A stretch of 64,000 nt of DNA, from contig OZ244775.1 of assembly GCA_965219505.1 (NCBI GenBank), positions 2,558,815-2,622,814 of the forward strand, given 5' to 3'. The stretch is from Chloroflexota bacterium. GTDB taxonomy: Bacteria > Chloroflexota > UBA11872 > VXOZ01. Positions 1,093 through 55,525 of this stretch are shown here, in pieces (within the stretch, counting starts at the first letter, position 1; every line of letters begins with the position of its first letter). Under the pieces are notes generated by a model that was not told the origin of the DNA, did not search any database, and saw only the letters and a program-made list of their open reading frames with translations. Made by a program: the position numbers and the translations under genes.

Positions 1093-4000
1093 ATGCGTGT
1101 CTCGTTAACGGCATGTGTTTGGTTGCCTAAGCTGATTTGGCGAGAGCTAAGGAGACCCACCGTGACCCGTTTTCTCACGTTGCTCCATACGATTACGCAA
1201 CGAAGCTCAAGGCAGTCAGTCTTGCCGGGTGTGGGGCAGCCTGGTATTGGGTTCGTGCTCGTGGTGCTGTTCAGCATGGTCTTCGCCATGGCTGCGCACG
1301 CGCAAACAGACAATGGGGAGAGTAGTTCGAGTGAGGTGCCCACCCTGACGATCGCGTCGTCGCACACTATTGCAGTGAAGGGCGAGGAGGTCACGTTTAC
1401 GATAACGGCGGACAGTGCGCCGACGACGGACATTTTGGTATACGTGCAGGTACAGGTAACGGTGCGCGAGCAGTCGTTGTATCAAAGCAAGGTTATGACG
1501 GTGTCCTTGGGAGCGGGAGAGCGGACGCTTGAGTTGCTAGCGGATACGGGAAGTGGCGGGGTAGGTGCGGGGATTCTGACACTTGACGTGAGTATTCTGG
1601 GGGGCGCTGGGTATCGCTTGGGCGATTCCCCGGTCGTGGGCATACGGGTGACGGATCCGCCCGCGGAAGCGGCGACTGGTAGCGGTGGAGCCGGCCAGAC
1701 GCCGCCGCCTGCGCCTGTGGGGTTCACGGCGAGTGCGGCAGCTGAGGACAGCATCGCGGTGAGCTGGGACGAACTGGCAGGGGTGTCGCACTATCGGCTG
1801 GAGGAGCAACTTGGGTCATTTAGTGTGGTGATGTGGCGTGTGGTGGGAGGACAGGGCAGTATCGCGCAGTCGAGCGCCACGGTCGCGGGATTGGCCGCCG
1901 GCACGACGTATCGGTACCGGGTGCGGGCGTACGGCGATGGGGAGGGCAATGCGGCAGCGTGGGGCGCTGCATCGGTAAGCGCTAGCGCCACGACCCAGGG
2001 GACTCAAACGCGGGCGCAAACTGCCAGGTCGGCGGTAGTGCGAGACGCACTGCCAGCGCCCACTGGGTTCAGCGCCACTGCGCCGAATTACTACACCATC
2101 AACGCGAGTTGGAACACCGTGACTGGGGCCAACTGCTATCGGTTTGGCATCTGGCTGGGCAATCCTGGGGGCTGGATATTCGTCAACATGAAAGATACAA
2201 GCTATTCGCGGACTAACGGTATAGCACGGGGCACGACGTACCAAATCCGCGTAGCAGCGACCAGTGATGAATGCCCAAACAATTCCATGTCAACTGCGGA
2301 GTGGGGGCCAGACCGGTGGGGGCAAGTGACCACGCCCCGACCCGATCCGCCGGCGCCCTCTGGGTTCAGCGGCAGCGCCACCGGCACACGGAGTATCAGT
2401 GCAAGTTGGACCCATGTGGGTGATACCTCCAAGTATGAGTTTAGCATAGAAATTGACGATCTCGGTGGCTGGCAAACTAACGAGCTTGCACGCTCCACTA
2501 CGAGCACTACGTGGAGCAGGGGTCTTGCCCCAGACACAACGTACAAAATTAGAGTGAGGGCCTATGGTGACGGCGGTGTCTATGCTGCAGACTGGGGCGA
2601 CTATAGTGAGGGTACGGTAACGACCGATTCGACGGTATCGCCGACAGAGACCCCGACGCCCACGCCAACACCCACGCCCACGCCGACGCCCACGCCGACA
2701 CCTACACCGACACCTTCAGGAACACCAGCGCCAGCGCCGGCCAGCGTTACGGCGGTCTTAGGTCAGACAGGCATCACGGTGTCCTGGACGTGGGGCACAG
2801 GAGTTAGTGCAGATATCGTAGACCACAAGGTGGAGTGGGAGGATAGCGCTCAGACGCACTCTGGCAGCAAAGCAGGGATCTCGCGTAATCTTGGAACGTG
2901 GGTGGTGACAGGACTAAAGTGCAGCAGCACCTATACCTTCAAGGTCAGCGGCCGGGGCGATGGCGACCCCTATAGTACAACCTACGGCCATAAGAAAGCA
3001 GGCACCGCCAGCACCAAGCTCTGCGCGCCTGAGCTCGACGTCATTCCGCTGCCGCAAAATAGTTCGTTTCGCAAGGCGTTGTTGACCTGGGATCGTGACG
3101 ACCGCGCCACCGGTGGGTATATCGTGCAAGTTCGAATAAAGGATGCGTCCTCGTGGCAAGACCTAGACGTCGTTCACACCTGGAACTCATATCAAGATTC
3201 TCCAGATGAAGATCCGTCGGTTGAGATAGAATTGGACATCATCGTAGATCCAATCGCAGTGGGACGTAATGAAGGCTTAGCCTTTCACGAGGCCTTTGAA
3301 TTCCGAGTGCAAGCTAAGCACGCTGAAGACAGTGCATTGGATAGTGACTTCAGCCATGTGACGATTGTGGATAGTCCCATCACCTCGGTGGTCGGAGACA
3401 GCAGTATGCAATCCGATAACAGAGGCAAGATGGTAATCAAGTGGCCAATGGTTCACAGTGACGCTCGATACACGGTGAGTTGGTACAAACTCGCTGGCGA
3501 CCATTCGCAGCTTTCCTGGCGTCCTAGTTCTACTCCAGTACCAAGAGACGATTGGGAGAGCATTGCCACATCCACCACACGTCTAGATCATACAGTCTAC
3601 ACTTCCACTCCAGGTCCTGGGGGTGACGTCTACGCAGTGCAACTCAACTACACAATCGCTGGTGAGAAATACTTCTCCGCGCGTGCGGCCTACGGTTGGG
3701 TATCGGACAGTTCACCCGACGGCAGCGGCAGGCGCGTTGCTACCTTTCCTCTGAACGACCCATTGCCTAACGGCACCTATGCATACCGCATCTGCTTAGA
3801 CACGTTTCCCCCTGACATGAATGATCAGGCAGACTGGCAAGAAATGATAGTAGAAGCTCTTGACCAATGGGAATCGGCCGTGCCCGATTATGTCACCATG
3901 AGTTTGGTAACCCATGAAGCAGGCACCCCTGATGCGGGAAAGAGCAAACCGTGCGCCAACAATGAGCCGGTTGTCAGGGCGATAAAGGACAGAATCGACG

Positions 4001-5878: not shown

Positions 5879-8479
5879 ATTACGTTGCAACTACATATGG
5901 CAGTGAGACGGAGGTAGCGGTGAGCACGCACGCTTGTCCCACACCTACACAGGTACCGACAGTGGCGCCTACACTAACAGTCAGAGCCGCCGTCAGCGCC
6001 AAGTGGGTTTAGCGCCAGCGCGCCCAATCACTTCACAATCAACGCGAGTTGGAACAGGGTGAGTGGGGCCATCTGCTATCGGTTCGGCATCTGGATTGGC
6101 AATCCTGGGGGGTGGAAGTACCAATTTACGCGGAATACAAGCGACACGCGGACTGCGGGTATAGCCCGGGGCACGACGTACCAAATCCGCGTAGCTGCGA
6201 CCTCCGATGAATGCCCCAAGTCGACCATGATGACTGCGGAGTGGGGGCCAGACCGGTGGGGGCAAGTGACCACGCCCCGACCCGATCCGCCAGCGCCCTC
6301 TGGGTTCAGCGGCAGCGCCACCGGCACACGGAGTATCAGCGCGAGTTGGACCCATGTGGGTGATACCACCAAGTATGAGTTTAGCATTGAAGTTGCCAGT
6401 CTCGGTGGCTGGCAAACTCAGGAAGTTGCGCGCTCCACGACGAGCACTACGTGGAGCAGGGGTCTTGCCCCAGGCACAACGTACAACATTAGAGTGAGGG
6501 CCTATGGTGACGGGGGTGTTTATGCTGCAGAGTGGGGGCCCTATAGCACGGAGACGGTAACGACCGAAATACCGACCGCGACTGCGACACCCACGCCCAC
6601 GCCGACACCTACACCGACACCTTCAGGAACACCAGCGCCAGCGCCGGCCAGCGTTTCGGCGGTGCTTGAAGGAGACACCAGTGTCCGCGTCTCCTGGACG
6701 TGGGGCACAGGGGTTAGTGCAAATATCGTAGCCCACAAGGTGGCGTGGGAAGATAGCGCTCAGACTCACTCTGGCAGCAAAGCAGGGATCTCGCGTAATC
6801 TTGGAACGTGGGTGGTGACAGGACTAAAGTGCAGCAGCACCTATACCTTCAAGGTTAGCGGACGGGGCGACGGCGACCCCTATAGCACAACCTACGGCGA
6901 TAATAAAGCAGCATCCGCCAGCACCAAGCTCTGCGCGCCTGAAGTTGACGTCATCCCGCTGCCGCACCGTCAGGCGTTATTGAAATGGGACGAAATACGC
7001 CTTGCAGATGAATACACCGTTGAAGCGCGAATGCTTCAAACAGGGAATCGTGGCTGGGCGACACCACATGCTTGGAACGTCGCCGACCCTGACAGGACTT
7101 CTCTTACAGTAAATTTGAAGACTATTGTCAATTACAGAGGGTTACAACACTCACCATACGCATACGAATTCCGTGTAAAGGCAGTGGATACCGGCACAGA
7201 TCCAATTCCTAGCAGTGAGTACAGCAACAGAGTCATACTCATAGATACACCCATCCTGTCAGTAAATGGCCATAGCCCCGGCTCAGGAAATAACGATGCC
7301 CAAGCGTTGCTCACGTGGAAGGAGATAGTTCAAGAGGACGTCTTGGGTAGTGAATGGAGAGACTTTGCAGGTGGAGCTTATTCTTTCCGCTATCGCAGGC
7401 TTAGCGACGCAAGCAATCCGCACACAGACCTAAACTGGAAACCGGACAAGCCTTCGGAACCCATTACAACCGTCAGCAACCCGATCACAGAATTGAGGCG
7501 TGAGGAAATCTACGCCATACAGCTGATCTATACCGTGACGAAGCCGGGGGAGACAACCCCAACAACCTTCTATTCTGCCCGAGATGCCTTCGTTTGGCCG
7601 TCAGCTGAAGGCGCAGACGGAGGGGAGAGAGTCGCAACTTTTCCGCTTAAGAACGGCGGCAGCGTTTATATGTACCGCATTTGTGAAGACGGATTCCCTG
7701 CTGCAGACATTGGTGACTGGAAAGCTACCATTCAGCATGCCTTTGGATTGTGGAAAGCCTTCACAGATCTTGTAACCATGACGTACTTAGGGTCTACTTG
7801 TGCGGACTACTCTGACGCTATCCAAGACATAGATAGCAATTATAACGACAAGACAGGGGTACCCTTGACCCCAAGTCAGCTTGGGATGTTGGGGCAGTAT
7901 TTGAAACAGCTTGATGTCCTTACCAACGCTCAAACCGACGATAAAGAGTACAACGAAGTAATCATGGTTGATGACACTACAGGTGTCTACGCAGAGTTCA
8001 AAGACATAGGAATCTTCCCGGAGTTTGCATCGGAATTGGGGTTTGCTGGGTGTGTTTTTGACGTCGATACTACGGCTTGCGCCATTTCCCGTCATGTGGA
8101 CGCGCAAACAGGTTACATTACGGACATTCTGTTGCGTAGGAGCAGAAACAAATTCGCTCCATCGGTTATGCCGGGCGGTGATATTACAGTGGAGAGAAGT
8201 GACGTGCAATTCAACATTTGCCCTACGGGCCCAGGCTTCAACACCTATGCGACCCTGATTCATAAATCCGGCCATGCCTTGGGAATTAGAGGTGGAGCCG
8301 AGGATCCTGATTGGATCCCTCAAATGAAAGGACATCCTACGATTTCGAATACTGTTATGAACTATGAAAACACAAACTTGAAGGCGCGAGGACCAATACA
8401 TATGTTGCCAACCGAACCGGATTGTTCCCCACATCCGTTGGACATTCTGGCAATCTACGCCATCTATCAGACTGATTGA
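5875..8479 (+). pseudogene. 5'-truncated, frameshifted paralog of the 1093..4554 metalloprotease, with HKSGH replacing HExxH
   Basis: An ATG at 5875 overlaps the TolB-like stop and opens a 45-codon frame (5875..6012) that terminates at TAG. Homology to 2040-4554 continues in another frame, open from 5978 with a GTG at 6059. This implies a 1-nt indel between about 5980 and 6010. The matching residues are PSGFSASAPNHFTINASW versus PTGFSATAPNYYTINASW. The catalytic motif reads 'IHKSGHALG' (Glu->Lys). The C-terminus is 'PDCSPHPLDILAIYAIYQTD'. Confidence 0.55.
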
Positions 8480-14430: not shown

Positions 14431-17148
14431 GTGTTGATTGCTGGGTCGAAAGGTTTGACGAGAATAGCAGGGCTGCTGCTGCTTTTGTTGCTTCTTGGCG
14501 TGGTCGGTTGCGCCACCGCAGAAGAGGTTGACGACATCCGCACCGAAGAGGTCGACGACGCCCGCACTGAAGAGGTTGAGGATGACGGCCGTATCTACCC
14601 GTGTAGCCCGTATTTTCTCGGGGTCGACGAAGATGCAAAGCATTCTCCGGTCTTCAAACCTAGGTTTCAAGATTTCTTATTGGAGTGGACGCCCAATGGT
14701 GCTCAGATTCTATTTGGCGTCTTCGAATTCCGCAGGGCTCATGAGATCCGCGTGGTGAATGCGCAGGGCTCACGCTTGCGCACGCTCGTAGATCCTGCAA
14801 GGGGCAACCCCGCATATGGTTTTCATTTTGACGTATCGCCGGACAGTACCCAGGTTGTCTATTCCTCCTGCGAGTTCCAAATGGAAGGCTCCGCTGGTAT
14901 TGAATCACTTCCGGAACGGGGAAGGTATCACTATGAGATCGCCGTCATCAACCTCGACGGCACGGGACGGAAGCGGCTCACGGCGAACGCATACCTCGAC
15001 CACTACCCGGCTTGGTCGCCCGACGGCAGCCGCATCGCCTTCATCGCGGAACCAACTGGCGGGTTAGAAAAGCCTATTGAGCGCAACTTGGTGCTCTACA
15101 CGATGACGGCGGATGGATCGGACGTGCAACAGTTGGCGCCGCCGGCGGCGAGCAACTTGGCTTTCACGCCGCCGCTCTGGTCGCCGACTGGGGAGCACGT
15201 GGCATTCATCGTGAAGGAGAGAGGCGGACCGTTCTTTTACGCCCTTTACACTGTCCGGCTAGACGGATCGGAGTTGACGCGCATTGCGCGCATAGCGCAG
15301 GCGACCGTAGTCTTTCCGGTACCTCGTGATGCTCCTCCGTTGGTGGCCTTGCCGTCATGGTCGGCGGATGGAGCTTATCTCGCCTTCCTGGCGCAGGAGG
15401 ACGGAAGAAACTACAGCATCTCCACCGCCCGCGCCGACGGCACTGAACTGCGCCAGGCGCTGGTATTGCCGGAGCCGGAGTCGCTTCTGAAACCGCACCG
15501 CCTGCTGTGGTCGCCGGATGGCGAACATCTAGCTCTGGTCATGTTTGATGAACAGGTCGCAATCAGTAGCTTTTACCCAGACGTAAACGATCCGATCGCC
15601 TTAGATGAATCCGGCCGTATCTACATTGCACGGGTGGACGGCAAAGGCCAGACGCGGATACTGCCAGCGCATGGACCCTGGTGGAACCCTTCCCTGGTGT
15701 CTTGGTCGCCGGACGGCTCTGAGCTTCTTCTTGTCTCGCGGCGTCAAGTGTTTCTCATCCGGCCGGACGGCGGCGAGTTACGCCGCTTGGGCGTGGGGCC
15801 GCAACACTTATTTTCCGCTTTCGCAGGAAGTCAATGGCACAACGTTGCGTGGTCGCCGGACGGCGCGCGCATTGCGCTCTATGATGCCGGGCCGAGGAGC
15901 GTCGATTTCCTGGGCATTTTCACGGTCGTGCCGGATGGGTCCGATCCGCGCGGATTGATGTGGGCAGGTAGCGAAATCGGCGATTCACGGGACCTAGAGC
16001 CCTGGCATCTTCCCCAGCCGGTTACGCCTGTAGACCCGGCAGCGTGCACAACGGGGGTTGTCGTGCCACGGCCTGGGTCCAATCCCGGCTTGGTCGCGGA
16101 CTGCAAGACGTTGCTCGGTTTGCGAGATGCCCTGGCGGGGCGCGCGACGTTGAACTGGAGCGGCCAGACACCTATCGCCGAGTGGGAAGGCATTACTATC
16201 GACGACCGGCCCCGACGCGTGACCGCACTGTTGTTGAGAGATCGCGGCCTCACCGGCGTGCTCCCACCGGAACTCGGCCAGCTCACTGCATTACGGCGGT
16301 TAGAGCTGTCTTCAATGGTCGAACCATACCGCGGCGTGCCGAACAGGCTGCATGGCAGCATTCCGGCTGAACTGGGTAATCTCAGCAAACTTGAGTATCT
16401 GGCCCTCGGCGGGAACCACCTGAGCGGAGAGATTCCGCCGGAGTTGGGCAATCTGACGTACCTTCGGTACTTATTATTGGATAGGAACTATCTGCGCGGT
16501 GGCATTCCGCCTGAATTGGGCGGGCTCACCAATCTTAGTGGACTGCACCTCGACAACAATGCACTAAGTGGCTCGATTCCAACAGAGTTGGGCGGGCTCA
16601 CCTACCTTAGTGGACTGCACCTCGACAACAATGCGCTTAGTGGCTCGATTCCAACAGCGTTGAGCCGTCTCACAAAACTTGAGTATCTGCACCTCGACAA
16701 CAACGAACTGAGTGGCCCCATACCGATGGAGTTGGGCGGGAATACGGAGCTTTATTCGTTGAATCTTGCCTTCAATGATCTGAGTGGGACCATACCGCCG
16801 GAGTTGGGAAGACTTACGGAACTCGATTGGCTGGAACTTCGGAACAACAATTTGAGCGGGCCTATCCCGCCTGAGCTGGGAGGTCTTTCGAGCCTCCGTC
16901 TTCTAGATATTGGAAACAATAGTCTGAGCGGGCCTATTCCACCGGAGTTGGGCGGTCTTGGTTATCTCCTTTACCTAAATCTCTCCTTCACTGAGATAAC
17001 TGGAAGCCTGCCTCCCGAACTAGAGCAACTCCGAATTGGGAAGTATCTGCACTTGAGGCATACCAATCTCAGCGGCTGCGTGCCGAGAGAATTGCCGGAG
17101 ATTTGGGTAGAAGCAAGCGGTCTGGAACGGTGTAAAGCAAGTGAGTGA
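14431..17148 (+). CDS. PD40/TolB-like beta-propeller lipoprotein fused to a C-terminal plant-type leucine-rich-repeat domain
   Basis: Signal 'LLGVVGC' and an acidic 'EEVDDxRTEEV' repeat at the N-terminus. PD40 repeats occupy the N-terminal ~500 aa. About 13 tandem 24-residue LRRs of the form 'LxxLxLxxNxLSGxIPxELGxL' follow from aa ~600. Confidence 0.75.
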   Translation: MLIAGSKGLTRIAGLLLLLLLLGVVGCATAEEVDDIRTEEVDDARTEEVEDDGRIYPCSPYFLGVDEDAKHSPVFKPRFQDFLLEWTPNGAQILFGVFEFRRAHEIRVVNAQGSRLRTLVDPARGNPAYGFHFDVSPDSTQVVYSSCEFQMEGSAGIESLPERGRYHYEIAVINLDGTGRKRLTANAYLDHYPAWSPDGSRIAFIAEPTGGLEKPIERNLVLYTMTADGSDVQQLAPPAASNLAFTPPLWSPTGEHVAFIVKERGGPFFYALYTVRLDGSELTRIARIAQATVVFPVPRDAPPLVALPSWSADGAYLAFLAQEDGRNYSISTARADGTELRQALVLPEPESLLKPHRLLWSPDGEHLALVMFDEQVAISSFYPDVNDPIALDESGRIYIARVDGKGQTRILPAHGPWWNPSLVSWSPDGSELLLVSRRQVFLIRPDGGELRRLGVGPQHLFSAFAGSQWHNVAWSPDGARIALYDAGPRSVDFLGIFTVVPDGSDPRGLMWAGSEIGDSRDLEPWHLPQPVTPVDPAACTTGVVVPRPGSNPGLVADCKTLLGLRDALAGRATLNWSGQTPIAEWEGITIDDRPRRVTALLLRDRGLTGVLPPELGQLTALRRLELSSMVEPYRGVPNRLHGSIPAELGNLSKLEYLALGGNHLSGEIPPELGNLTYLRYLLLDRNYLRGGIPPELGGLTNLSGLHLDNNALSGSIPTELGGLTYLSGLHLDNNALSGSIPTALSRLTKLEYLHLDNNELSGPIPMELGGNTELYSLNLAFNDLSGTIPPELGRLTELDWLELRNNNLSGPIPPELGGLSSLRLLDIGNNSLSGPIPPELGGLGYLLYLNLSFTEITGSLPPELEQLRIGKYLHLRHTNLSGCVPRELPEIWVEASGLERCKASE

Positions 17149-17930: not shown

Positions 17931-18342
17931 CCATTCCTCCTATGCCTTTTATGTTCTAGGTGAACTGACGCTCGCACAGTTTGTGAACGACTACTACATT
18001 TGTCGTACGGGACTGTGCGTCACGGACCCCCGCACCTTTAGCCGTTCAACACTCGCTTCGTTTGCAATCTAGTTGGCACCGGCAAGACTACTCCAAGTAA
18101 GGATCACGTACGAATTGTCTTCAGGTCCTTCGCTGCTCCCGATATAACAGCCAGACAGAGCATGAGAATGGTGACAAATCGTAGCGCGGGGGCTTGCCCC
18201 CCGCTCCTCTGTGCACTGTCCAGAAGCCATGTCATGCATGCTTCTGTTGTCCGAAAAGCTAGTTTTCTCCTCCGAGTCAAGCACGGGGCTACGTCGCGCT
18301 CGAAATGACAATTGTACCCAGCACAATGGTGACTAGAACTCT

Positions 18343-20798: not shown

Positions 20799-21024
20799 CG
20801 GTAGGGTCGTGCAGGCTGCGACTGTGGGCGTAACTGGCGATTCTAAGGGCTCATGATGACTCCGGTGTAGAGTCCATTGCGAATCGCCATCCCTCTTGAT
20901 GGCGGGGAGGCCGCGATGGGGGGCGGTACACGCTATGTGGAATGGTGCCGCAAACCCCCTGGATTCCGGCTTTCGCCGGAATGACGCATTCATGCAAGGA
21001 TTCATGTGTAGCAAAGAGAGCGCC

Positions 21025-29103: not shown

Positions 29104-29127
29104 GGATTCCCGCTTGCGCGGGAATGA
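29104..29127. repeat. REP-like palindrome, family B (GATTCCCGCTTKCGCGGGAATGAC)
   Basis: A perfect inverted repeat, attcccgc/gcgggaat. Copies also occur at 31705-31728 and, as a variant, at 46584-46607. Confidence 0.6.
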
Positions 29128-31704: not shown

Positions 31705-31728
31705 GATTCCCGCTTTCGCGGGAATGAC
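31705..31728. repeat. REP-like palindrome, family B copy, adjacent to the short tandem repeat 'gacggatggaacggRaat' x2.5
   Basis: Same palindrome as at 29104. The short repeat lies at 31726-31765. Confidence 0.55.
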
Positions 31729-31832
31729 GGATGGAACGGAATTGACGGATGGAACGGGAATGACATTTGGGATGACTCTTCCCATTGTTGGGCGGGGACC
31801 GGTCACCTGTTCGGCGCGGCTTCCCACTGTAG

Positions 31833-31855
31833 CGCGGGGGCTTGTCCCCCGCTCG
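31833..31855. repeat. REP-like hairpin, family C (GTAGCGCGGGGGCTTGTCCCCCGC)
   Basis: Stem GCGGGGG/CCCCCGC with loop CTTGT. Copies at 18183-18205, 32599-32619 (variant), 38967-38989 (reverse orientation) and 55387-55407 (reverse orientation). Confidence 0.6.
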
Positions 31856-32032
31856 GCATGGTTCAGCAAACTTTTCAACAAACCGGACATTGCCACGCAA
31901 AACAATGCACCTTGGGCGTCAGAGTATGTGGCGATGTCTTTACGAATCGCCACTGCAGCCGAGGCAGCGCGCTGCTTCAACCAGCGAGGGTCAAAAAGCC
32001 GAAGAAAACTAAGCACACTTGGACGGTGAGCA

Positions 32033-38910: not shown

Positions 38911-39301
38911 TAGGTCCCCGCCAGCAAGAGAGCACAAGAATCAGTGTTCGGCATACGCGTTAATCAGCGGAGAACAAGCCCCCGCGCTACGCCTGGCTGA
39001 CTTCTGTTTGCCGCGATAGGCAGTCATTCCAAGCGAAGCTAGGTATCTAGAACTCGGGTCCTGGATTCCGACTAAGGCTTCCGCGGCACGTAGGGGCACG
39101 ACATGTCGTGCCCCTACCAGGTCGTCGTTGCGGCAGAACGCCTGCTCCGAGCGCAGCGAGGAATCCAGTTTGTGCGCTCGGCTATGAAGATTTGCGGTTG
39201 AAAGCAAAGCGACTCGCAATTCCTTCCGGGCAAGAATCGACAACCTAAACGCGAAGCCGGAGGGGCGCGCCACTCACCGCAGATTACGCTCAAATCCGTC
39301 C

Positions 39302-39910
39302 TCAGGACGCGCGCAGCCAGCCGGGCCGCTGTTCTTCGAAAGCCGCAATGGCGTCTGCCTGCTGCAAGGTCAAGCCAACCGCGTCTAGGCCGTTAAGTAG
39401 GCGGTGTTGAACGGTAGCATCAACCGAGAACGAGGCCGTGAAACCATGGTCGTCTTGGACTGTTGTCTTTACCAAGTCCACGGCTATGCGGTAGTTGGCA
39501 ATAGTCTGTGCGCGCTCCGTGAGGGTGGCCACGTCTTCCGGCGGCAAGACCACCGTGAGCATGCCATTCTCCACGGCGTTGTTGGCAAAGATGTCGGCAA
39601 AGCTGGGGGCGATGATGGCTAGGAAGCCATACTCTTTGAGCGCCCAAGCGGCGTGCTCCCGCGAAGAGCCGCAGCCGAAATTCCTGCCGGTGACGAGGAT
39701 CGTCGCGCCCGCATAGCGCGCGTCGTTGAGTTCGAACGCCGGGTTTGGGGTCGTGCCGTCCTCGAAGTACCGCCAGTCGAAGAACGCAAACGGGCCGTAG
39801 CCCGTACGTTCGATCCGCTTGAGAAACTGCTTCGGAATGACCTGGTCGGTGTCAACGTTGGCGCGGTCAAGCGCCGCTACTTTGCCGGTGTGTTCTACAA
39901 AGGGTTCCAT
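39302..39910 (-). CDS. leuD: 3-isopropylmalate dehydratase small subunit
   Basis: Canonical LeuD sequence. RBS 'aaggaaa' lies before ATG 39910 (MEPFVEH). Confidence 0.9.
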   Translation of the reverse strand: MEPFVEHTGKVAALDRANVDTDQVIPKQFLKRIERTGYGPFAFFDWRYFEDGTTPNPAFELNDARYAGATILVTGRNFGCGSSREHAAWALKEYGFLAIIAPSFADIFANNAVENGMLTVVLPPEDVATLTERAQTIANYRIAVDLVKTTVQDDHGFTASFSVDATVQHRLLNGLDAVGLTLQQADAIAAFEEQRPGWLRAS

Positions 39911-40296
39911 CGCTTTTTCCTTTTGCAATTTCGCCTACCCGCGTTGTGGGGCGAGTGGTTCCTAGTCTTACAACATTGTATTGATGGGTAGGCGCAGGCG
40001 ATGGCACGGAAAGACAGCGCAGGTTACCCGCACGTCCCGTGCGAACCTACGTTACCCATCGATGCAAACGTGTTGAACTACTAGCGCGCTAGCAACATCA
40101 AGAAGATTGTAACCATTACTACCTGGTAGATAGTAGCGGCGAGTAGCATCAACCCCCAGCGTATGGTCATGCGCCGCACCATCTCGTCCAAGTAGTCTCT
40201 ATTGTCGTTCACCGCAATTTCTTCCGGTCGGTTTGGGTTGCCGACGCTTCTCAATTAAGGGCATGCCGCAAGGCTTGACACGTGCGCCTATGCCTC

Positions 40297-41697
40297 TCAC
40301 CACTCCCGCACGTCCACGAACCGCCCCGCAATCGCGGCGGCGGCGGCCATCTGCGGACTGACGAGATGGGTGCGTCCGCCCTTGCCCTGGCGGCCCTCAA
40401 AGTTGCGGTTGGATGTTGAAGCACACCGCTCGCCGGGAGCCAAAATATCCGGGTTCATCCCCAAACACATAGAGCAACCGGCCTCACGCCACTCGAACCC
40501 CGCAGCCTGAAAGACCTCGTTAAGTCCTTCTGATTCCGCCTTCTGTTTGAGCATCGTTGAGCCCGGTACCACCATCGCCCTGACATTGGGGTGCACCCGC
40601 TTGCCGCGTACAATGCCCGCTGCCGCCCGCAGGTCTTCCAGCCGCGCGTTGGTGCACGAACCCAGAAAAACACGGTCAATAGGAATGTCCTGAATGGGCG
40701 TGCCTCCCTCCAGACCCATATATGTCAGAGCGCGCTCGGCAGTGGCTTGCTCATCAGGGGTTGCCATCTCACCGGGACTGGGCACGGAGCCGGTGATGGG
40801 AACCACCTGGCCGGGGTTCGTACCCCAGGTTACGTGGGGCACGAGCGTGGCTGCATCAATCACTATGACGCTATCGTAGGTAGCGTCGGCATCGGTGGAC
40901 AGCGTCCGCCAATGCGCGAGCGCCTCATCCCAGTCACTGCCTTGCGGCGCATACTTGCGCCCCTTAAGGTATGCAAACGTCTTCTCATCGGGCGCGATCA
41001 TCCCGGCGCGCGCGCCGCCTTCGATTGACATGTTGCAAATCGTCATGCGCCCTTCCATGGAGAGCGAGCGTATCACCTCACCCGTGTACTCGATTACGTG
41101 TCCGACGCCACCTTCCACGCCGATGTGCCCAATGATGCCGAGAATAACGTCCTTGGCCGTGACGCCCTGGGGCAGCGTACCGTCCACCCGCACTTCCATC
41201 GTCTTTGGCTTTTTCTGAATTAGGCACTGGGTGGCCAGCACGTGCTCCACCTCAGACGTGCCGATGCCGAGGGCAAACGCCCCAAACGCGCCGTGCGTAG
41301 AGGTATGGCTGTCACCACAGACGATTACCTTGCCGGGCTGCGTGTAGCCCAGTTCCGGCCCAATGATGTGCACGATGCCCTGATTCGGGCTGCGGTATCC
41401 ATAGAACGTGAGGCCGAATTCCGCCGCATTTTGCTCCATGGTCTCGATTTGACGGCGGGAAATATCGTCGGCAATCGACTCTGTGCGGCTCGTCGTAGGG
41501 ACGTTGTGGTCTACCGTCGCTACGGTCAGGGCAGGCCGCCGCACGGAACGACCGCTCAGCCGCAGCCCCTCGAATGCCTGCGCCGAGGTAACTTCATGCA
41601 CAAGGTGCAAGTCAACGTAGAGCAGCGCCGGTGCGCCCGGCTCCTCATGCACCAGGTGACTCTCCCAAACCTTCTCGAACAGCGTCTTTCCAGCCAT
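40297..41697 (-). CDS. leuC: 3-isopropylmalate dehydratase large subunit
   Basis: Aconitase-family motifs and the three Fe-S cysteines (C..C..C in 'GSCTNAR', 'GCSMCLG'). Confidence 0.9.
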
Positions 41698-41942
41698 ACG
41701 TGTCTCTCACTTTATAGCGACCAAGTGTACACAGAGCCGAGCCAACATCGGGCCCCGCTTTTCATCTATTCTAACTTACCTGCCGCTAACTATTGAAGCG
41801 ATAGAACGTACGCAATCCATTGAAAAGGAGAACTGAAGCTAGCAGGTAGACGGTATCCAGCGCTCTCGCGGTAATTGCTTAGGTACAAAACGTAGTGCGC
41901 ATTGAGATTCCAGGTGGCCGGTAACGCAGGTTTGCAGCCCGC

Positions 41943-42630
41943 GCCAAATCGCCGTAGAGGGCACTCCTCGTGACTCCCCTCCTCTTTCCGCCGTAGGGGC
42001 AGTCCTTGTGACTGCCCTCTTCTTTCCGTTGTAGGCGCAGTCCTTGTGACTGCCCTCTTCTTTCCGTTGTAGGCGCAGTCCTAGTGACTGCCCTCTTCTT
42101 TCCGCCGTAGGCGCAGTCCTAGTGACTGCCCTCTTCTTTCCGCCGTAGGCGCAGTCCTTGTGACTGCCCTCTTCTTTCCGCCGTAGGCGCAGTCCTTGTG
42201 ACTGCCCTCTTCTTTCCGTTGTAGGGGCAGTCCTTGTGACTGCCCTCTTCTTTCCGTTGTAGGCGCAGTCCTTGTGACTGCCCTCTTCTTTCCGTTGTAG
42301 GCGCAGTCCTCGTGGCTGCCCTCTTCTTTCCGCCGTAGGCGCAGTCCTTGTGGCTGCCCTCTTCTTTCCGCCGTAGGCGCAGTCCTCGTGGCTGCCCTCT
42401 TCTTTTCGCCGTAGGCGCAGTCCTCGTGGCTGCCCTCTTCTTTTCGCCGTAGGCGCAGTCCTCGTGGCTGCCCTCTTCTTTTCGCCGTAGGCGCAGTCCT
42501 CGTGGCTGCCCTCTTCTTTTCGCCGTAGGCGCAGTCCTCGTGGCTGCCCTCTTCTTTTCGCCGTAGGCGCAGTCCTCGTGGCTGCCCTCTTCTTTTCGCC
42601 GTAGGCGCAGTCCTTGTGACTGCCCTCTTC
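41943..42630. repeat. Tandem array of ~18 copies of a 38-bp unit (GTAGGCGCAGTCCTTGTGACTGCCCTCTTCTTTCCGYY), each containing a 7-bp-stem hairpin (GGCAGTC-N5-GACTGCC)
   Basis: Direct head-to-tail repeats with no unique spacers. Variants differ in the hairpin (cttgtgac / ctagtgac / ctcgtggc). The array sits immediately upstream of the leuC start on the same strand. Confidence 0.85.
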
Positions 42631-42720
42631 CAGTAAGTCGAGAGCAGTGCGGCTCACGCGCTAGATTCCACAGCCAAGCAAGCGATTGGCAGTACAATCT
42701 GCTTTGCCAAGTCCCTCATT

Positions 42721-44565
42721 TCAATACCCACCCTCACCATCACTGGATTCGGCGTACACCGCCTCACCCCTGTGAAGGCGGCGGGCGATCGTGTAGGTTT
42801 GCGTGGTGGCGCGGCGCGTGGGAGCGTGGGCCGCCTGCCAGCGGGCAATCGCAACGAGCGTCTGGTATGAGGCATCAGCGTGACCTGTCTCGGCAAAGTC
42901 TTGGGCCAGGCGCACCCCTTCCTCCAGCATTTGAAAGTCGTGGAAGCCGGGGTCCTCGCGAAGCACTGACCTGCCAAGTGTAGCGATCAACGCCGCCGGA
43001 TCATGGCCGAGTGTCAGATACCGATACGTAATCGCGCCAGCCTCATCTTCGCCACCCTGCCGCTCGCAGCACGCCAGAAGTTGCTCCTGCAAAGTGGCGG
43101 GGTCGTTTGGCAGTTCCGCCAGCGCACGTGCACCTGGCAGGCGCGCGGCGGGCATATTGAGGAAGCGGGCCTGATACACCACCATCGCGCCGTGGAGCAC
43201 GCCACGAGCTAGCTCCACAGACGGCGCGCGTTTGGCGACTTGGGCCAGCGACGCGCAGTAGGTGAAGTGGTGGAGGGCCGTATCCCAATCGCCAAACTCG
43301 TTGCTGATCGGAAACCTCGTTATACGCAGGGCTGAGGCAAACGCCAGCGCCTGCGCCCCGTCCGCCAAGGAAAGGCCGCCCCGGAAGGCCGCCAGCAACG
43401 TCTCGACACTGTCTTGCGGATCGTCGCCGAGCAGTGCCTCGACAAGATCATCGTTCCAAGCGCCTGTAGGCTGCGCCGTGAGGTCAACGGCAGTATCCAA
43501 CTCCGGCACTGCCGCCTCTACCAGCGCCACGAGGTCTTCGGGGCGATGCCATGCATTCCGTTCCTCTTCGCGTGTCGCCTGCGCCCACTGGCTGGTCAGC
43601 GCCGGCAGCACCTCTGCAGCGTTTTCCCAGCCGATGATGTCCAAGAGTTCCGCCGCCTTGGCCAGCGTATCCATGACGTGGGAAAAGTCGCGATAGTAGT
43701 GGTCGGTAGCGGCGGCGGCCAGCATGTCGAGCAACTGCTCCTGCGACCAGCCCGCTGCTATCGCCGTGCGCAGTGTGCGCTCAGCCGCATCGGCGTCGCG
43801 CACCTCGACGTACTCCCGGAACCAACGCTTCAGACGCGCATCGGGAACCGCCGCCGTGGGCAGCGGATCGAGCATGATCCGCTCCTGACGATTCATGGCA
43901 TCACCCCCTACGCGGCGCGTCCCGTGGTAGAGGGAGAGCGGCCGATCTTCGGCAAAAAGGTGCGGCTGCAGGTTCGCCATGGCCGTGAGAATGGTAAGCC
44001 CGTCACCCCAACCGCCCGGATTGCGGCTGGAACCCCGCCGTAGACCGTACTCAGCGGTAGTTGCGACAATCTTCTTCGTCGCGTCCGCGGGCTTCAGGTC
44101 GCGCAAGGCCAGCACGGCCTTGGCTTGATTGAGCGCAATGCCCTGCTCCAGCGCTTTTTCCAGGCGAGTAGCCTCCTGCGCATACTGCTCGTCTGCGCTC
44201 TGCATCTCGCGCAAGTCCACCCAAACGACTTCATCCTGCACAGTCACCGGATAGGTGCGCACGTCGCCGGCCCAGATGTCGAACGCGCCGCCGGAATCAA
44301 GGTCGAAACGCGCGTAATGCCAGTAGCAGGTCAGCACACCGTCCTCACAAATGCCGCGCGCCAGCGGAAAACCCATGTGCGGACAGCGGTTGTCCACGGC
44401 GTACGCGCGCTCGTTGTGCCAAAACACGCAAATCGTATGCCCCTGCCCCGTCGCCGTCACAACCCCTTGCTGCTGCAAGTCCGCGAGCGTAGACACACGG
44501 AGCAATCCGTTCTCTCCTATGGAATCGTGCGTGGTCGGAGCACTCCGCGGTGTAGTTGTAGCCAT
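42721..44565 (-). CDS. Rieske [2Fe-2S] domain protein fused to a large uncharacterised C-terminal domain
   Basis: 'CPHMG...CYWH' Rieske ligand boxes in the N-terminal ~110 aa. The ~500-aa C-terminal region has no recognisable motif. Confidence 0.6.
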   Translation of the reverse strand: MATTTPRSAPTTHDSIGENGLLRVSTLADLQQQGVVTATGQGHTICVFWHNERAYAVDNRCPHMGFPLARGICEDGVLTCYWHYARFDLDSGGAFDIWAGDVRTYPVTVQDEVVWVDLREMQSADEQYAQEATRLEKALEQGIALNQAKAVLALRDLKPADATKKIVATTAEYGLRRGSSRNPGGWGDGLTILTAMANLQPHLFAEDRPLSLYHGTRRVGGDAMNRQERIMLDPLPTAAVPDARLKRWFREYVEVRDADAAERTLRTAIAAGWSQEQLLDMLAAAATDHYYRDFSHVMDTLAKAAELLDIIGWENAAEVLPALTSQWAQATREEERNAWHRPEDLVALVEAAVPELDTAVDLTAQPTGAWNDDLVEALLGDDPQDSVETLLAAFRGGLSLADGAQALAFASALRITRFPISNEFGDWDTALHHFTYCASLAQVAKRAPSVELARGVLHGAMVVYQARFLNMPAARLPGARALAELPNDPATLQEQLLACCERQGGEDEAGAITYRYLTLGHDPAALIATLGRSVLREDPGFHDFQMLEEGVRLAQDFAETGHADASYQTLVAIARWQAAHAPTRRATTQTYTIARRLHRGEAVYAESSDGEGGY

Positions 44566-44662: not shown

Positions 44663-45217
44663 CTAGACTGCAGCCTCGAGACGACGGGCAAGGCAGTCGA
44701 AATCCTCTGGACACTTCCGTCGAATCTTTCCGATGCGACGCGCAGCCTCATCACCTAGTTGCTTGCGCCCGCCGCCAGGCGCATCGGACAAGCCTCGCTC
44801 GGCAACGAGAAGTTCAAAGTACCGTTCCTTGACTTGGACTTCCTTGCGTACTTCCTTCCAATTCCAATTAGAAGGCAGCCTTAACCCGGCGAGCAGCCAG
44901 GTCTCAATCTCTTCCCAAGCATTCTCAGCAATAAAGGCGTCACCGAACTCGGCTTCGATCTCGTCAAGCCTTTGACGCCTCCCCACTTCGCCATCGCGGT
45001 CTACGCAAAGAATGAAGATGTTTACCGTCGGGTATTGCTGAACTACATCTCTTAGTCGTTCCGATTTCAATGCTTCTTGAACACCGCCAAGCAAAGGTTC
45101 TAAGCAAACCTCAACACGTAGGGAAGACTTGCCGAGAGACCCAAAGAGCCGCTCAAAGATGGGCTTCAATATGTACTGGTCGTTGCGAAAGTCTTCAGGG
45201 ATCAGGAGAACCTTCAT
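44663..45217 (-). CDS. Small uncharacterised protein coupled to the upstream ATPase (DUF4276-like partner)
   Basis: ATGA overlap with the 45214..46560 gene. 184 aa. Assignment to the family rests on context and length only. Confidence 0.4.
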   Translation of the reverse strand: MKVLLIPEDFRNDQYILKPIFERLFGSLGKSSLRVEVCLEPLLGGVQEALKSERLRDVVQQYPTVNIFILCVDRDGEVGRRQRLDEIEAEFGDAFIAENAWEEIETWLLAGLRLPSNWNWKEVRKEVQVKERYFELLVAERGLSDAPGGGRKQLGDEAARRIGKIRRKCPEDFDCLARRLEAAV

Positions 45218-46560
45218 TCTCCGCCCTTCTCATCTTCTTTTTCCGCCTCCTCGAAGGACAGTATGTTCTCCATCCAACCGGAAGTGTGGAGACGCCCCAA
45301 GCCCTGAGACTTTCGCAATTCTCTGGCATTGGGTAGCTCCGCCACCCGCCGGATAGTGGCATCTGCGGATTGCTCGTCACGATATACGACAACGGAATTC
45401 TCAAATGTCGTGTCATTGATGAGATTCAGCACGTCAGGCGAATGCGTGGTGGCGATCACCCGAATCTTTCCCTTTGCGGTCTGCCGTTCGATGAGATCAA
45501 GCAAGAGGTGCAGCCGTGCTGGATGAATGCCGTTGTCAATCTCTTCAAAGAAGTAGAAGCCAGCTTTGTCTTCGCTCAACAGCACAGCCAGCATACCGAG
45601 AAAGCGCAGCGTGCCATCGGACGCGCTGTAAGCCGATATCTTTCGCCCGTTCGCCTCTACGATTCTGAGATTAACCCTGCCGTTGAGGTCGACCGGAAAC
45701 TCCAAGTCGCTAACGTCCATTGGCGTAAGTTCATGCAACCACGATAAGAGAACCGCCTTGCGCTGGGGATTATCGCAGATTGCCTCAAGCACTGTGGCCA
45801 AATTGCTGCCTGATTCGTCCAATCTAGTAGCACCAGGGATGGCAGCCCTCCGCATGCTTTCCGGCGACAACTCCAGAAAGTGCATCCTCAAGAGTTCTCC
45901 CCTGATATACAACTTTATCAGGTAGATAGTCAACTTAGCGATAAGGTCCCTAGCCTGTTCGTCATCAGTGTCTTCAGGCCCGTTAATATTGATGAAATCA
46001 CTAAGGAAATCATCAATCTGACTGAGGCCGGGTTGATCTGAGGCGACTTCTATTGGTTCGCCGGCCGGCGGCAGGTAGAGACGCAGCCTGGAATCCTCTA
46101 GCTCTGCTCCCCCGCTGCAATTCAGGGGCGGATCACTTGTATACAAGATTTCAGGAGCTCGCGAATCCGGCGTCCTTACACCAGTTCTTAGTGACTCGGC
46201 TACGACTTGAAATTGACCTCCAGCCTGATCACGTCGGATTCGGATAAAATAGCGTATGCTCTTTACGCCTGACTTGAGCAACTCAGTCGATTCCATCTCG
46301 ACTTCAAGAGCGAATTCATCCTGTCCAAAGCGAATTACCTCATTGGCAGCACCACGGACAGGCTGTTGTTCAGCGTCAAATCTTCCACCAAGAATTTCCG
46401 CCAAGGTGTAGTTATCGCAAATACCCTCAAGGAACCGGAAAGCATCGCGGATGTTGCTCTTGCCGCTGGCGTTGGCGCCCACGATAAGGGTGAACGGACC
46501 GATGTGCAGCGTCTCATCGGCAAAGTTCTTAAAGTTGACCAGGCGGAGCGAGGTAATCAC
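45214..46560 (-). CDS. AAA_21/AAA_15 (ABC-like, RecF/SMC-type) ATPase
   Basis: Walker A 'GANASGKSN' at the N-terminus, 'SLRLVNFKNF' start, and a C-terminal 'VIATTHSPDVL' D-loop/H-loop. Confidence 0.7.
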   Translation of the reverse strand: MITSLRLVNFKNFADETLHIGPFTLIVGANASGKSNIRDAFRFLEGICDNYTLAEILGGRFDAEQQPVRGAANEVIRFGQDEFALEVEMESTELLKSGVKSIRYFIRIRRDQAGGQFQVVAESLRTGVRTPDSRAPEILYTSDPPLNCSGGAELEDSRLRLYLPPAGEPIEVASDQPGLSQIDDFLSDFININGPEDTDDEQARDLIAKLTIYLIKLYIRGELLRMHFLELSPESMRRAAIPGATRLDESGSNLATVLEAICDNPQRKAVLLSWLHELTPMDVSDLEFPVDLNGRVNLRIVEANGRKISAYSASDGTLRFLGMLAVLLSEDKAGFYFFEEIDNGIHPARLHLLLDLIERQTAKGKIRVIATTHSPDVLNLINDTTFENSVVVYRDEQSADATIRRVAELPNARELRKSQGLGRLHTSGWMENILSFEEAEKEDEKGGE

Positions 46561-49615: not shown

Positions 49616-49976
49616 TTGGTGGAGATGGGGGAGGGTCGAACTCCCCGTCCAAAGCTGTTCTTCCTGCAACCTCTACGAGCGTAGTCAGCTTTTGTGTTTC
49701 ATTCCCAGAGCACGAGCGGACGAAAACCCCTGAGAACTAGCCCCCGTTTGTCTTTCGCAGTCCCCGAAGGCTGGTGGACCGCGGCACCCCGGCTGTTAGG
49801 TCGCCCAAGCTGCGCTCACCGGAGTAAGAGCAGATGGACGTCACAGCTTTATTTAGGCTGCGAGAGCAAAATTGTGCTTGTTGGCACTTAAAAAAGTTGC
49901 TACCTGTTTAACGAGGGTGATAGCACCTCGGCTCGCAGTTACAAGCCTCCCAACCCTGTCGAATCCACTCATCCCC
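49616..49976 (-). ncRNA. ssrA: tmRNA (SsrA), encoded tag ANKHNFALAA
   Basis: The reverse complement starts 'GGGGATGAGTGGATTCGACAGGG' and ends 'GGACGGGGAGTTCGACCCTCCCCCATCTCCACCA', a tRNA-Ala-like acceptor with a G3-U pair. The internal frame is 'GCC AAC AAG CAC AAT TTT GCT CTC GCA GCC TAA ATAA'. Confidence 0.8.
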
Positions 49977-53925: not shown

Positions 53926-54013
53926 TGGTGCCGAAGAAGGGACTCGAACCCTTACGAGCATAAAGCCCACTAGCCCCTCAAGCTAGCGCGTCTTCCAATT
54001 CCGCCACTTCGGC
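53926..54013 (-). tRNA. tRNA-Leu (anticodon GAG)
   Basis: The reverse complement reads GCCGAAGTGGCGGAATTGG...CTTGAGG...GGGTTCGAGTCCCTTCTTCGGCACCA. It has a long variable arm and encodes CCA. Confidence 0.8.
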
Positions 54014-55330: not shown

Positions 55331-55525
55331 ATGTTGCGTTCTCCTCAATTGTCCGTTCATGCCACTGAAGTGCCAATTTATAGGAAGCGGGGGACAAGCC
55401 CCCGCGCTACAGCGTGAACCCTGAGAGTAGGAAGGGAATAGTTAGACGGTGTTAACTAACGCCTTCAATGGGAACGCCAAGCGGGCCAGTGTCGACCTCA
55501 GACGCTCACAGCCCATCTCGTCCCG

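Follow-up and report, generated by a model that had tools for sequence, protein, structure and literature searches.

The window, that is, the whole 64,000-nt stretch of DNA that was analysed, comes from a member of the Chloroflexota that is probably sponge-associated. On its minus strand it encodes a 614-aa protein with an N-terminal Rieske [2Fe-2S] domain (42721..44565; Pfam PF00355 and PF13806), followed by leuC (40297..41697; Pfam Aconitase, E 9e-184) and leuD (39302..39928; Pfam Aconitase_C), which encode the large and small subunits of 3-isopropylmalate dehydratase, respectively. Only residues ~23–116 of the Rieske gene product match Rieske domains, and the remaining ~500 residues are without a Pfam match. 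Upstream of the Rieske gene, and on the same strand, are an AAA_21/AAA_15 ATPase gene (45214–46560), the product of which matches the PADLOC candidate defence protein PDC-M07A (E 5e-71), and a 184-aa ORF without a family match (44663–45217), the start of which is overlapped by the ATPase gene; this pair also precedes the Rieske gene in three related contigs (L021–L023).

Between the Rieske gene and leuC, as ORFs and the Pfam Rieske and Aconitase matches confirm, is the tandem array of hairpin repeats to which the initial annotation had drawn attention. The array is extragenic and lies between two genes of the same direction, ~90 nt past the Rieske stop codon and about 245–250 nt from the leuC start.

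Organization of the array and its flanks

TRF reports a tandem array at 41950–42630 with a period of 38 bp, 17.9 copies, 96% matches, 0% indels and a score of 1073, by far the strongest repeat in the 64-kb window. The 17-nt hairpin core GCAGTCCTTGTGACTGC, searched with up to three mismatches, gives 18 matches at exact 38-bp spacing (0.14 expected by chance) and none outside the array in the 64 kb, which confirms the estimate of ~18 tandem 38-bp hairpin repeats. By TRF, core search and unit table, the 18-unit head-to-tail array extends over 41954..42631, with its GTAG strand on the plus strand of the window and, thus, antisense to both flanking genes. A separate 72-bp tandem repeat (16516–16740; 3.1 copies, 81% matching) lies inside a long ORF (14431–17148), and it may be the source of the LRR_1 (leucine-rich repeat) match given by one of the scanned window ORFs.

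Each unit comprises GTAG, an 8-position stem enclosing a CTYGT loop, and a CTCTTCTTTCCGYY linker of 13 nt that is pyrimidine-rich on the plus strand; the plus-strand consensus reads GTAG, G, (C/G)GCAGTC, CT(T/C/A)GT, G(A/G)CTGCC, C, CTCTTCTT(T/C)CCG(CC/TT). The GTAG is present in 18/18 units at a fixed distance to the hairpin, and unit 1, at the array boundary, is degenerate and 39 bp long. The whole 38 bp repeats and the units abut, so that the array is head-to-tail without spacers, as first described, with a unit length within the 10–100 bp of minisatellites. A CRISPR array, which the initial annotation had also discounted, is rejected for the same features, namely, abutting units and the lack of unique spacers.

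Every copy had been credited with a GGCAGTC/GACTGCC stem and a CTTGT loop. A hairpin is indeed common to the units, but the perfect stem (GGGGCAGTC/GACTGCCC) is found only in two of them (u2 and u8), and 15 read GGCGCAGTC, which places a C:C mismatch at the second stem pair; the loop is CTTGT in 8 units, CTCGT in another 8, and CTAGT in 2. Nor is the variation mostly within the hairpin: three variable positions are there (stem 18, loop 27, and stem 31), and three are in the linker (8, 11, and 12).

The 11 distinct unit types are arranged in ordered blocks, including five identical units side by side, which is the pattern that stepwise local duplication, and not an assembler artefact, would be expected to leave. 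Short-read assemblers have difficulty with arrays of 38-bp units; it is nevertheless very improbable that one REP copy was expanded in assembly, given the ordered pattern of 11 unit variants with a degenerate boundary unit, and given that arrays of 3 to 11 units recur at this position in independent assemblies of related genomes. A repeat protein encoded by the array is scarcely conceivable. The unit can be read through in each of the three minus-strand frames, which yields a 272-aa minus-strand ORF (42657..41839), and similar ORFs are predicted by gene callers in four related contigs; however, the unit length of 38 bp is not divisible by 3, the 272-aa ORF has no Pfam match, and two single-unit relatives are without such an ORF. 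The only database relatives are the four singleton ORFs over the orthologous array (155 to 203 aa), the length of which tracks copy number, and these spurious calls in four related assemblies stand as a warning to annotators.

On the leuC side, the array is abutted by a tagged palindrome (41920..41945, plus strand; GGTAACGCAGGTTTGCAGCCCGCGCC in the window and GTAGCGCAGGTTTGCAACCTGCGC in relatives), which appears in the alignment as a conserved 11-bp hairpin and forms, together with the array, a same-orientation REP cluster. In consensus folds of both unique flanks only this hairpin stands out, and there is no covariation-supported leader. On the other side, the ~90-nt spacer from the Rieske stop codon to the first hairpin (42632..42720, minus strand) is 77–97% conserved among close relatives, and neither a convincing conserved structure nor a terminator is found in it (consensus fold -9.6 kcal/mol; minus-strand terminator scan). 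Thus, the REP hairpins would be the first stable structure available to the Rieske transcript.

Copy number at orthologous loci

The Rieske–spacer–leuC–leuD locus was recovered from eight related Chloroflexota genomes (LeuC 91–97% amino acid identity). A hairpin-pattern scan provided four Chloroflexota MAG chromosomes with the same flanks and gene order, and a protein search with the spurious ORF of the array provided four more loci, on long-read metagenome contigs. There is one unit in L006 and in L011, three in L013, ~5 in L002, five in L023, ~7 in L024, ~10 in L022 and ~11 in L021, vs. 18 in the window. The array span between conserved anchors is 41 bp in L006, ~41 bp in L011, 117 bp in L013, 192 bp in L002, 201 bp in L023, ~262 bp in L024, 374 bp in L022, and 431 bp in L021, and it reaches 688 bp in the window. 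Copy number at the same locus therefore differs between related genomes (1 to 18 units, nine genomes), and of the three options originally offered for the array (a binding sponge, a VNTR, or an unusual attenuator), it is the VNTR that is borne out.

All relatives in this series are ≤92% identical to the window in leuC nucleotide sequence, and the comparison is, therefore, one between species. Nucleotide identity between the window and the relatives is 91–92% for leuC and 86–87% for the Rieske gene, and the source of the window is a sister species of the relatives, which are 92–95% identical among themselves where compared, apart from the more distant L011. The one-unit L006 groups by identity with L013 (three units) and L002 (~5 units); thus, losses of units occur as well as gains. 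With 1 to ~11 units in the eight relatives vs. 18 in the window, the locus is a hypervariable minisatellite grown from one hairpin, and its copy number is seemingly under no visible constraint.

In the relatives, the perfect stem is mostly kept, and the single-copy orthologues are free of the C:C mismatch; the expansion in the window has propagated a mismatch-bearing unit variant. The single-copy relatives have GAAG and GTTG where the array has GTAG. A truncated terminal unit is common to L022 and L024. In all four ENA long-read contigs (L021–L024; 6x–38x coverage), leuC is split by frameshifts, so these assemblies carry indel errors and the odd truncated units in them need caution; further deletions within units, in L021 and L022, may also be errors of assembly.

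Hairpin pairing and transcription signals

The 8-position stem and 5-nt loop form a hairpin with a predicted fold energy of -11.5 to -15.8 kcal/mol per unit, equal on both strands. The initial annotation had noted compensatory or GU-compatible variants among the copies. No stem pair within the array is altered on both sides, so there is no compensatory change; the A31G variant, in 8 units, gives T:G on the plus strand, which is the strand antisense to Rieske and leuC, and A.C on the gene-sense strand. As it is the only wobble-compatible variant, and as most units have the C:C mismatch, the variants do not support a transcribed string of hairpins. Among the 21 family members compared, 90.5% of stem cells are paired and three pairs are changed on both sides; the observed score was reached by 0/500 shuffles, and slid registers are 32–54% paired. 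The strand signal among the same 21 members is divided, with U:G at one pair in 8/21 favouring the GTAG strand and three A.C cells favouring the other. The fold of the whole array has a z of about -7.5 on each strand, and because the units pair promiscuously with one another, this whole-array minimum free energy says nothing on strand or function.

A consensus scan identifies 16 terminator-like sites in the array vs. 1.5 expected. All 16 are on the plus strand and none is on the minus (gene) strand, so that the array does not qualify as an intrinsic terminator for the flanking genes. The excess of sites would suit an ordinary intrinsic terminator hairpin, unrelated to REPs, that was duplicated here and in which GTAG is coincidental; the lack of an exact GTAG in the single-copy relatives would suit it as well, as would the related hairpins of Poribacteria and of L012, which are located between convergent genes just after the stop codons. 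We nevertheless regard this origin as unlikely, because the strand with all of the sites is antisense to both flanks and no plus-strand gene ends there. In gene sense, what follows the stem is CUACGGCGG and not a U run. Furthermore, GTAG recurs at the same offset in six lineages, and inverted pairs and several copies per contig fit a repeat family.

Alignments reveal a conserved promoter-like block between the array and leuC (41766..41798, minus strand; gene sense CTTCAATAGTTAGCGGCAGGTAAGTTAGAATAG, also given as CAATAGTnnGCnGCAnGTAnGTTAGAAT), with a -10-like TAGAAT at 41768–41773 and a weak -35-like TTCAAT at 41792–41797. The block CAATAGTnnGCnGCAnGTAnGTTAGAAT is the best-conserved non-coding block and is kept even in L011, in which the rest of the spacer is ~55% identical; a conserved ribosome-binding region is found further downstream, toward leuC. 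A sigma-70 consensus scan of the spacer called no site, so it is conservation that carries the proposal of a promoter, in which TAGAAT would be the -10 element of a putative leuC promoter. If the block is the leuC promoter, then the array lies upstream of it. The conserved block with TAGAAT between the array and leuC makes it more likely that the array is Rieske 3′ UTR or intergenic DNA than that it is a leuC leader. A position upstream of the leuC promoter also fits that published for REPs, near the 3′ end of the upstream ORF (PMC3733652).

The initial annotation had allowed for a string of hairpins in the leuC leader acting as an attenuator, or for a sponge. In such a functional RNA, the 18 hairpins would be transcribed with Rieske or leuC, and would serve as a protein or RNA sponge or as a leuCD attenuator. 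The location between two same-strand genes agrees with this, as does a related array inside an operon, between nifD and nifK (see below). In addition, when the units are read in gene sense, the top of each hairpin contains GGA (ACAAGGAC / ACGAGGAC) and the linker, GGAAAGAAGAGGG, is rich in purines, features that we take to be loosely like those of multi-site binding RNAs. Against it, no array size is conserved: between the same flanking genes, two relatives have one unit each, and the other six range from 3 to 11. The stem mismatch of 15/18 units is lacking from the single-copy orthologues, eight units would have an A.C mismatch in the gene-sense RNA, and the promoter-like block separates the array from leuC.

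The spacer also lacks known regulators of this kind. There is no leader, riboswitch or sRNA in it at the Rfam gathering threshold, and a permissive Rfam scan returns only ncS025, a generic hairpin plus U tail, at 28.8 bits vs. 46 for gathering. No T-box or leucine-rich leader peptide is found in the spacer; read from the sequence, the only short ORF in the putative leader contains two Leu codons and is absent in L011. A functional RNA is therefore improbable, the leader or attenuator proposal being unsupported in view of the single hairpin of two relatives, the absence of a known leader or riboswitch, and the intervening conserved block, and nothing speaking for the sponge proposal.

Related palindromes and the GTAG-tagged REP interpretation

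The window contains a second GTAG family, GTAGCGCGGGGGCTTGYCCCCCGC, that has the same GTAG-to-loop distance and CTTGT loop as the array unit. Sequence search locates four copies in the 64 kb (0 expected by chance), at 18181–18204 (+), 31829–31852 (+), 38967–38990 (-) and 55387–55410 (-). Those at 31829 and 55387 have GTAGCGCGGGGGCTTGTCCCCCGC with a CTTGT loop, in agreement with the initial annotation, which held this loop to be common to another REP family. At 31778–31857, the family forms a 42-bp head-to-tail pair with a diverged copy, and one copy is also present in L006. A perfect 28-bp palindrome, GTAGGGGCACGACATGTCGTGCCCCTAC (39090–39117), is located ~185 nt downstream of leuD and is kept at the same place in L002 and L006; like the array unit, it begins with GTAGGGGCA. 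A third hairpin family, ATTCC(C/G)GC-TTKC-GC(G/C)GGAAT then GACG, is represented at 20963–20982, 29106–29125 and 31706–31725, and its copy at 31706 runs into a 17–18-bp tandem repeat, GGAATGACGGATGGAAC (31721–31764).

Genome and metagenome scans used a pattern of hairpin core and tail from which GTAG was left out. They returned non-orthologous copies of the hairpin in other Chloroflexota, Poribacteria, an alphaproteobacterium and unassigned contigs, with GTAG at the same offset in six independent lineages. The hairpin type is multi-copy in L008, L014, and L018, with inverted-pair copies in L008 and L018. In L014, an unrelated metagenome contig, a 5-unit, 31-bp head-to-tail array is situated between nifD and nifK (3794–3950), and a solitary copy is situated between nifE and nifN (7304–7337), 3.4 kb from the array; at both sites, GTAG is on the strand opposite to the coding one, which is also the arrangement in the window. 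In Poribacteria, the 31-nt element TTGTAGGGGCAGTCCTTGTGGCTGCCCTCTT matches the array unit at 30/31 positions, the exception being G for A at the stem wobble site, and it occupies one conserved locus between convergent genes in three genomes (L003 4775–4805, L007 3022–3052, and L009 1263–1293). This sharing across phyla hints at horizontal spread of the REP type, or at strong convergence; a further reading, which we consider unlikely, is that a REP/RAYT system is spreading horizontally and that the near-identical 31-nt element, shared with Poribacteria and other phyla, is its mark.

Within the lineage of the window, the array sequence type is confined to its locus: there are 0 copies outside the array in the 64 kb, and in four related genomes, all deposited as single chromosomes, the exact 22-mer occurs at the array locus only, that is, at one locus per chromosome. 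No RAYT/Y1_Tnp family is present among the 25 of 52 Pfam families listed for 48 window ORFs; scanning 10 small ORFs and the six ORFs that surround the array separately revealed none either, and no RAYT was found around the related elements in L014 and L018.

The features taken to define a REP were a G+C-rich palindrome of 20–40 bp with a 5–13 bp stem, a 2–20 nt loop and an unpaired GTAG (or GYAG/GTRG) at one end; an extragenic location downstream of an ORF, between same-direction or convergent genes; many genomic copies; and a cognate RAYT (IS200/IS605-type Y1 transposase). GTAG-tagged REP clusters were described by Di Nocera, De Gregorio and Rocco 2013 (PMC3733652). GTAG REPs are present in Chloroflexi, tandem reiteration of singletons takes in some of the DNA that flanks them, and between same-direction genes REPs are near the 3′ end of the upstream ORF (PMC3733652). 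The classification admits families clustered at few loci: Thermomicrobium roseum has GTAG-23 blocks at a few loci that are not dispersed, and Thauera sp. MZ1T has GTAG-1 arrays (PMC3733652). Head-tail REP dimers are under-represented (PMC3733652).

The array resembles these clusters in its unpaired GTAG at the palindrome end, in stem and loop sizes within the reported ranges, in being extragenic near the 3′ end of the upstream ORF, in tandem reiteration with flanking DNA, and in its occurrence in Chloroflexi. It is also like T. roseum GTAG-23 in its confinement to few loci. It differs in that 18 strictly head-to-tail copies are present at one locus, where head-tail dimers are reported to be rare, and in that its sequence type was found nowhere else, either in the window or on the related chromosomes. 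That GTAG REPs can be reiterated in tandem and can cluster at restricted loci has been described before, also for Chloroflexi (PMC3733652). What is new is that 18 copies stand strictly head-to-tail, that copy number at one locus can be followed through nine genomes, and that the hairpin is nearly identical across phyla. For the array sequence itself, or for repeats of sponge Chloroflexi, nothing specific was found in the literature.

Three other systems share part of this organization. In Escherichia coli, REP/BIME elements have roles in mRNA 3′ protection, transcription attenuation and gyrase/IHF binding; they are likewise intergenic palindromic units clustered between same-direction genes, although the REPs of a BIME alternate in orientation with defined linker motifs, whereas the array has one orientation and one linker. 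The MIRU-VNTR loci of Mycobacterium tuberculosis have units of 40–100 bp that are not known to be GTAG-tagged hairpins and in which small, translationally coupled ORFs may be present, and their copy number differs between related genomes, which makes them strain markers. The array is like them in its tandem units of tens of bp, intergenic position between same-direction genes and variable copy number, and unlike them in that its 38-bp unit is a palindrome and is not a multiple of 3. The boxB module of Streptococcus pneumoniae is hairpin-forming, ~45 bp long and present in variable tandem number within an intergenic repeat, as is the array unit in its own spacer; however, BOX elements have a composite A-B(n)-C architecture with >100 dispersed copies, are not known to bear a GTAG tag and have no sequence relation to the array unit.

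Taken together, the array is probably a tandem cluster of a GTAG-tagged, REP-type palindromic element that forms a minisatellite of rapidly changing length. The REP label, to which the initial annotation had also leaned and which is borne out, is given because GTAG-tagged REPs are defined by GTAG followed by a short palindrome rich in G+C (PMC3733652), because the dispersed GTAGCGCGGGGGCTTGYCCCCCGC family and the palindromes GTAGGGGCACGACATGTCGTGCCCCTAC and 41920–41945 are in the same window, and because GTAG is found at the same offset in six independent lineages despite its absence from the search pattern. Four points count against this account: the array sequence type is not dispersed in this lineage; no RAYT is seen among the window ORF families listed; the single-copy relatives read GAAG and GTTG instead of GTAG; and head-to-tail order is under-represented among REP dimers (PMC3733652).

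Under the REP-type minisatellite account, this Chloroflexota lineage has a single hairpin ~90 nt past the Rieske-domain gene, and in several members of the lineage this hairpin and its 13-nt linker have been reiterated head-to-tail, giving 1 to 18 units. Amplification may have proceeded by slipped-strand mispairing or by unequal recombination between identical 38-bp units, and may have been aided by hairpin formation on single-stranded DNA; a possible alternative driver is cleavage and rejoining at GTAG by a REP-associated tyrosine transposase (RAYT). The function would be at most a generic REP role, by which the hairpins could act as a 3′ barrier, terminator or insulator of the Rieske transcript, and this barrier would sit upstream of the separate, putative leuCD promoter. 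Counted against such a role are the fold energies, which do not discriminate between strands, and a promoter that consists of the conserved TAGAAT block only.

We consider it unlikely that this is a contingency locus, at which rapid gain and loss of REP units, possibly catalysed by RAYT at GTAG, would tune Rieske-to-leuCD transcription or supercoiling, or Rieske mRNA stability. If it were, uncultured Chloroflexota would have heritable yet reversible expression variants. With amplification in place of a REP-type palindrome, a striking 18-hairpin array beside a biosynthetic operon needs no new mechanism, and the nine genomes, with their 1 to 18 units, illustrate cleanly how REP clusters grow and shrink in nature. 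The array also has a practical use, of modest value, as a length marker to separate closely related uncultured Chloroflexota populations in long-read metagenomes.

Elsewhere in the window, and also on the minus strand, are a tmRNA gene (49617–49976; 176.6 bits) and a tRNA gene (53929–54013).
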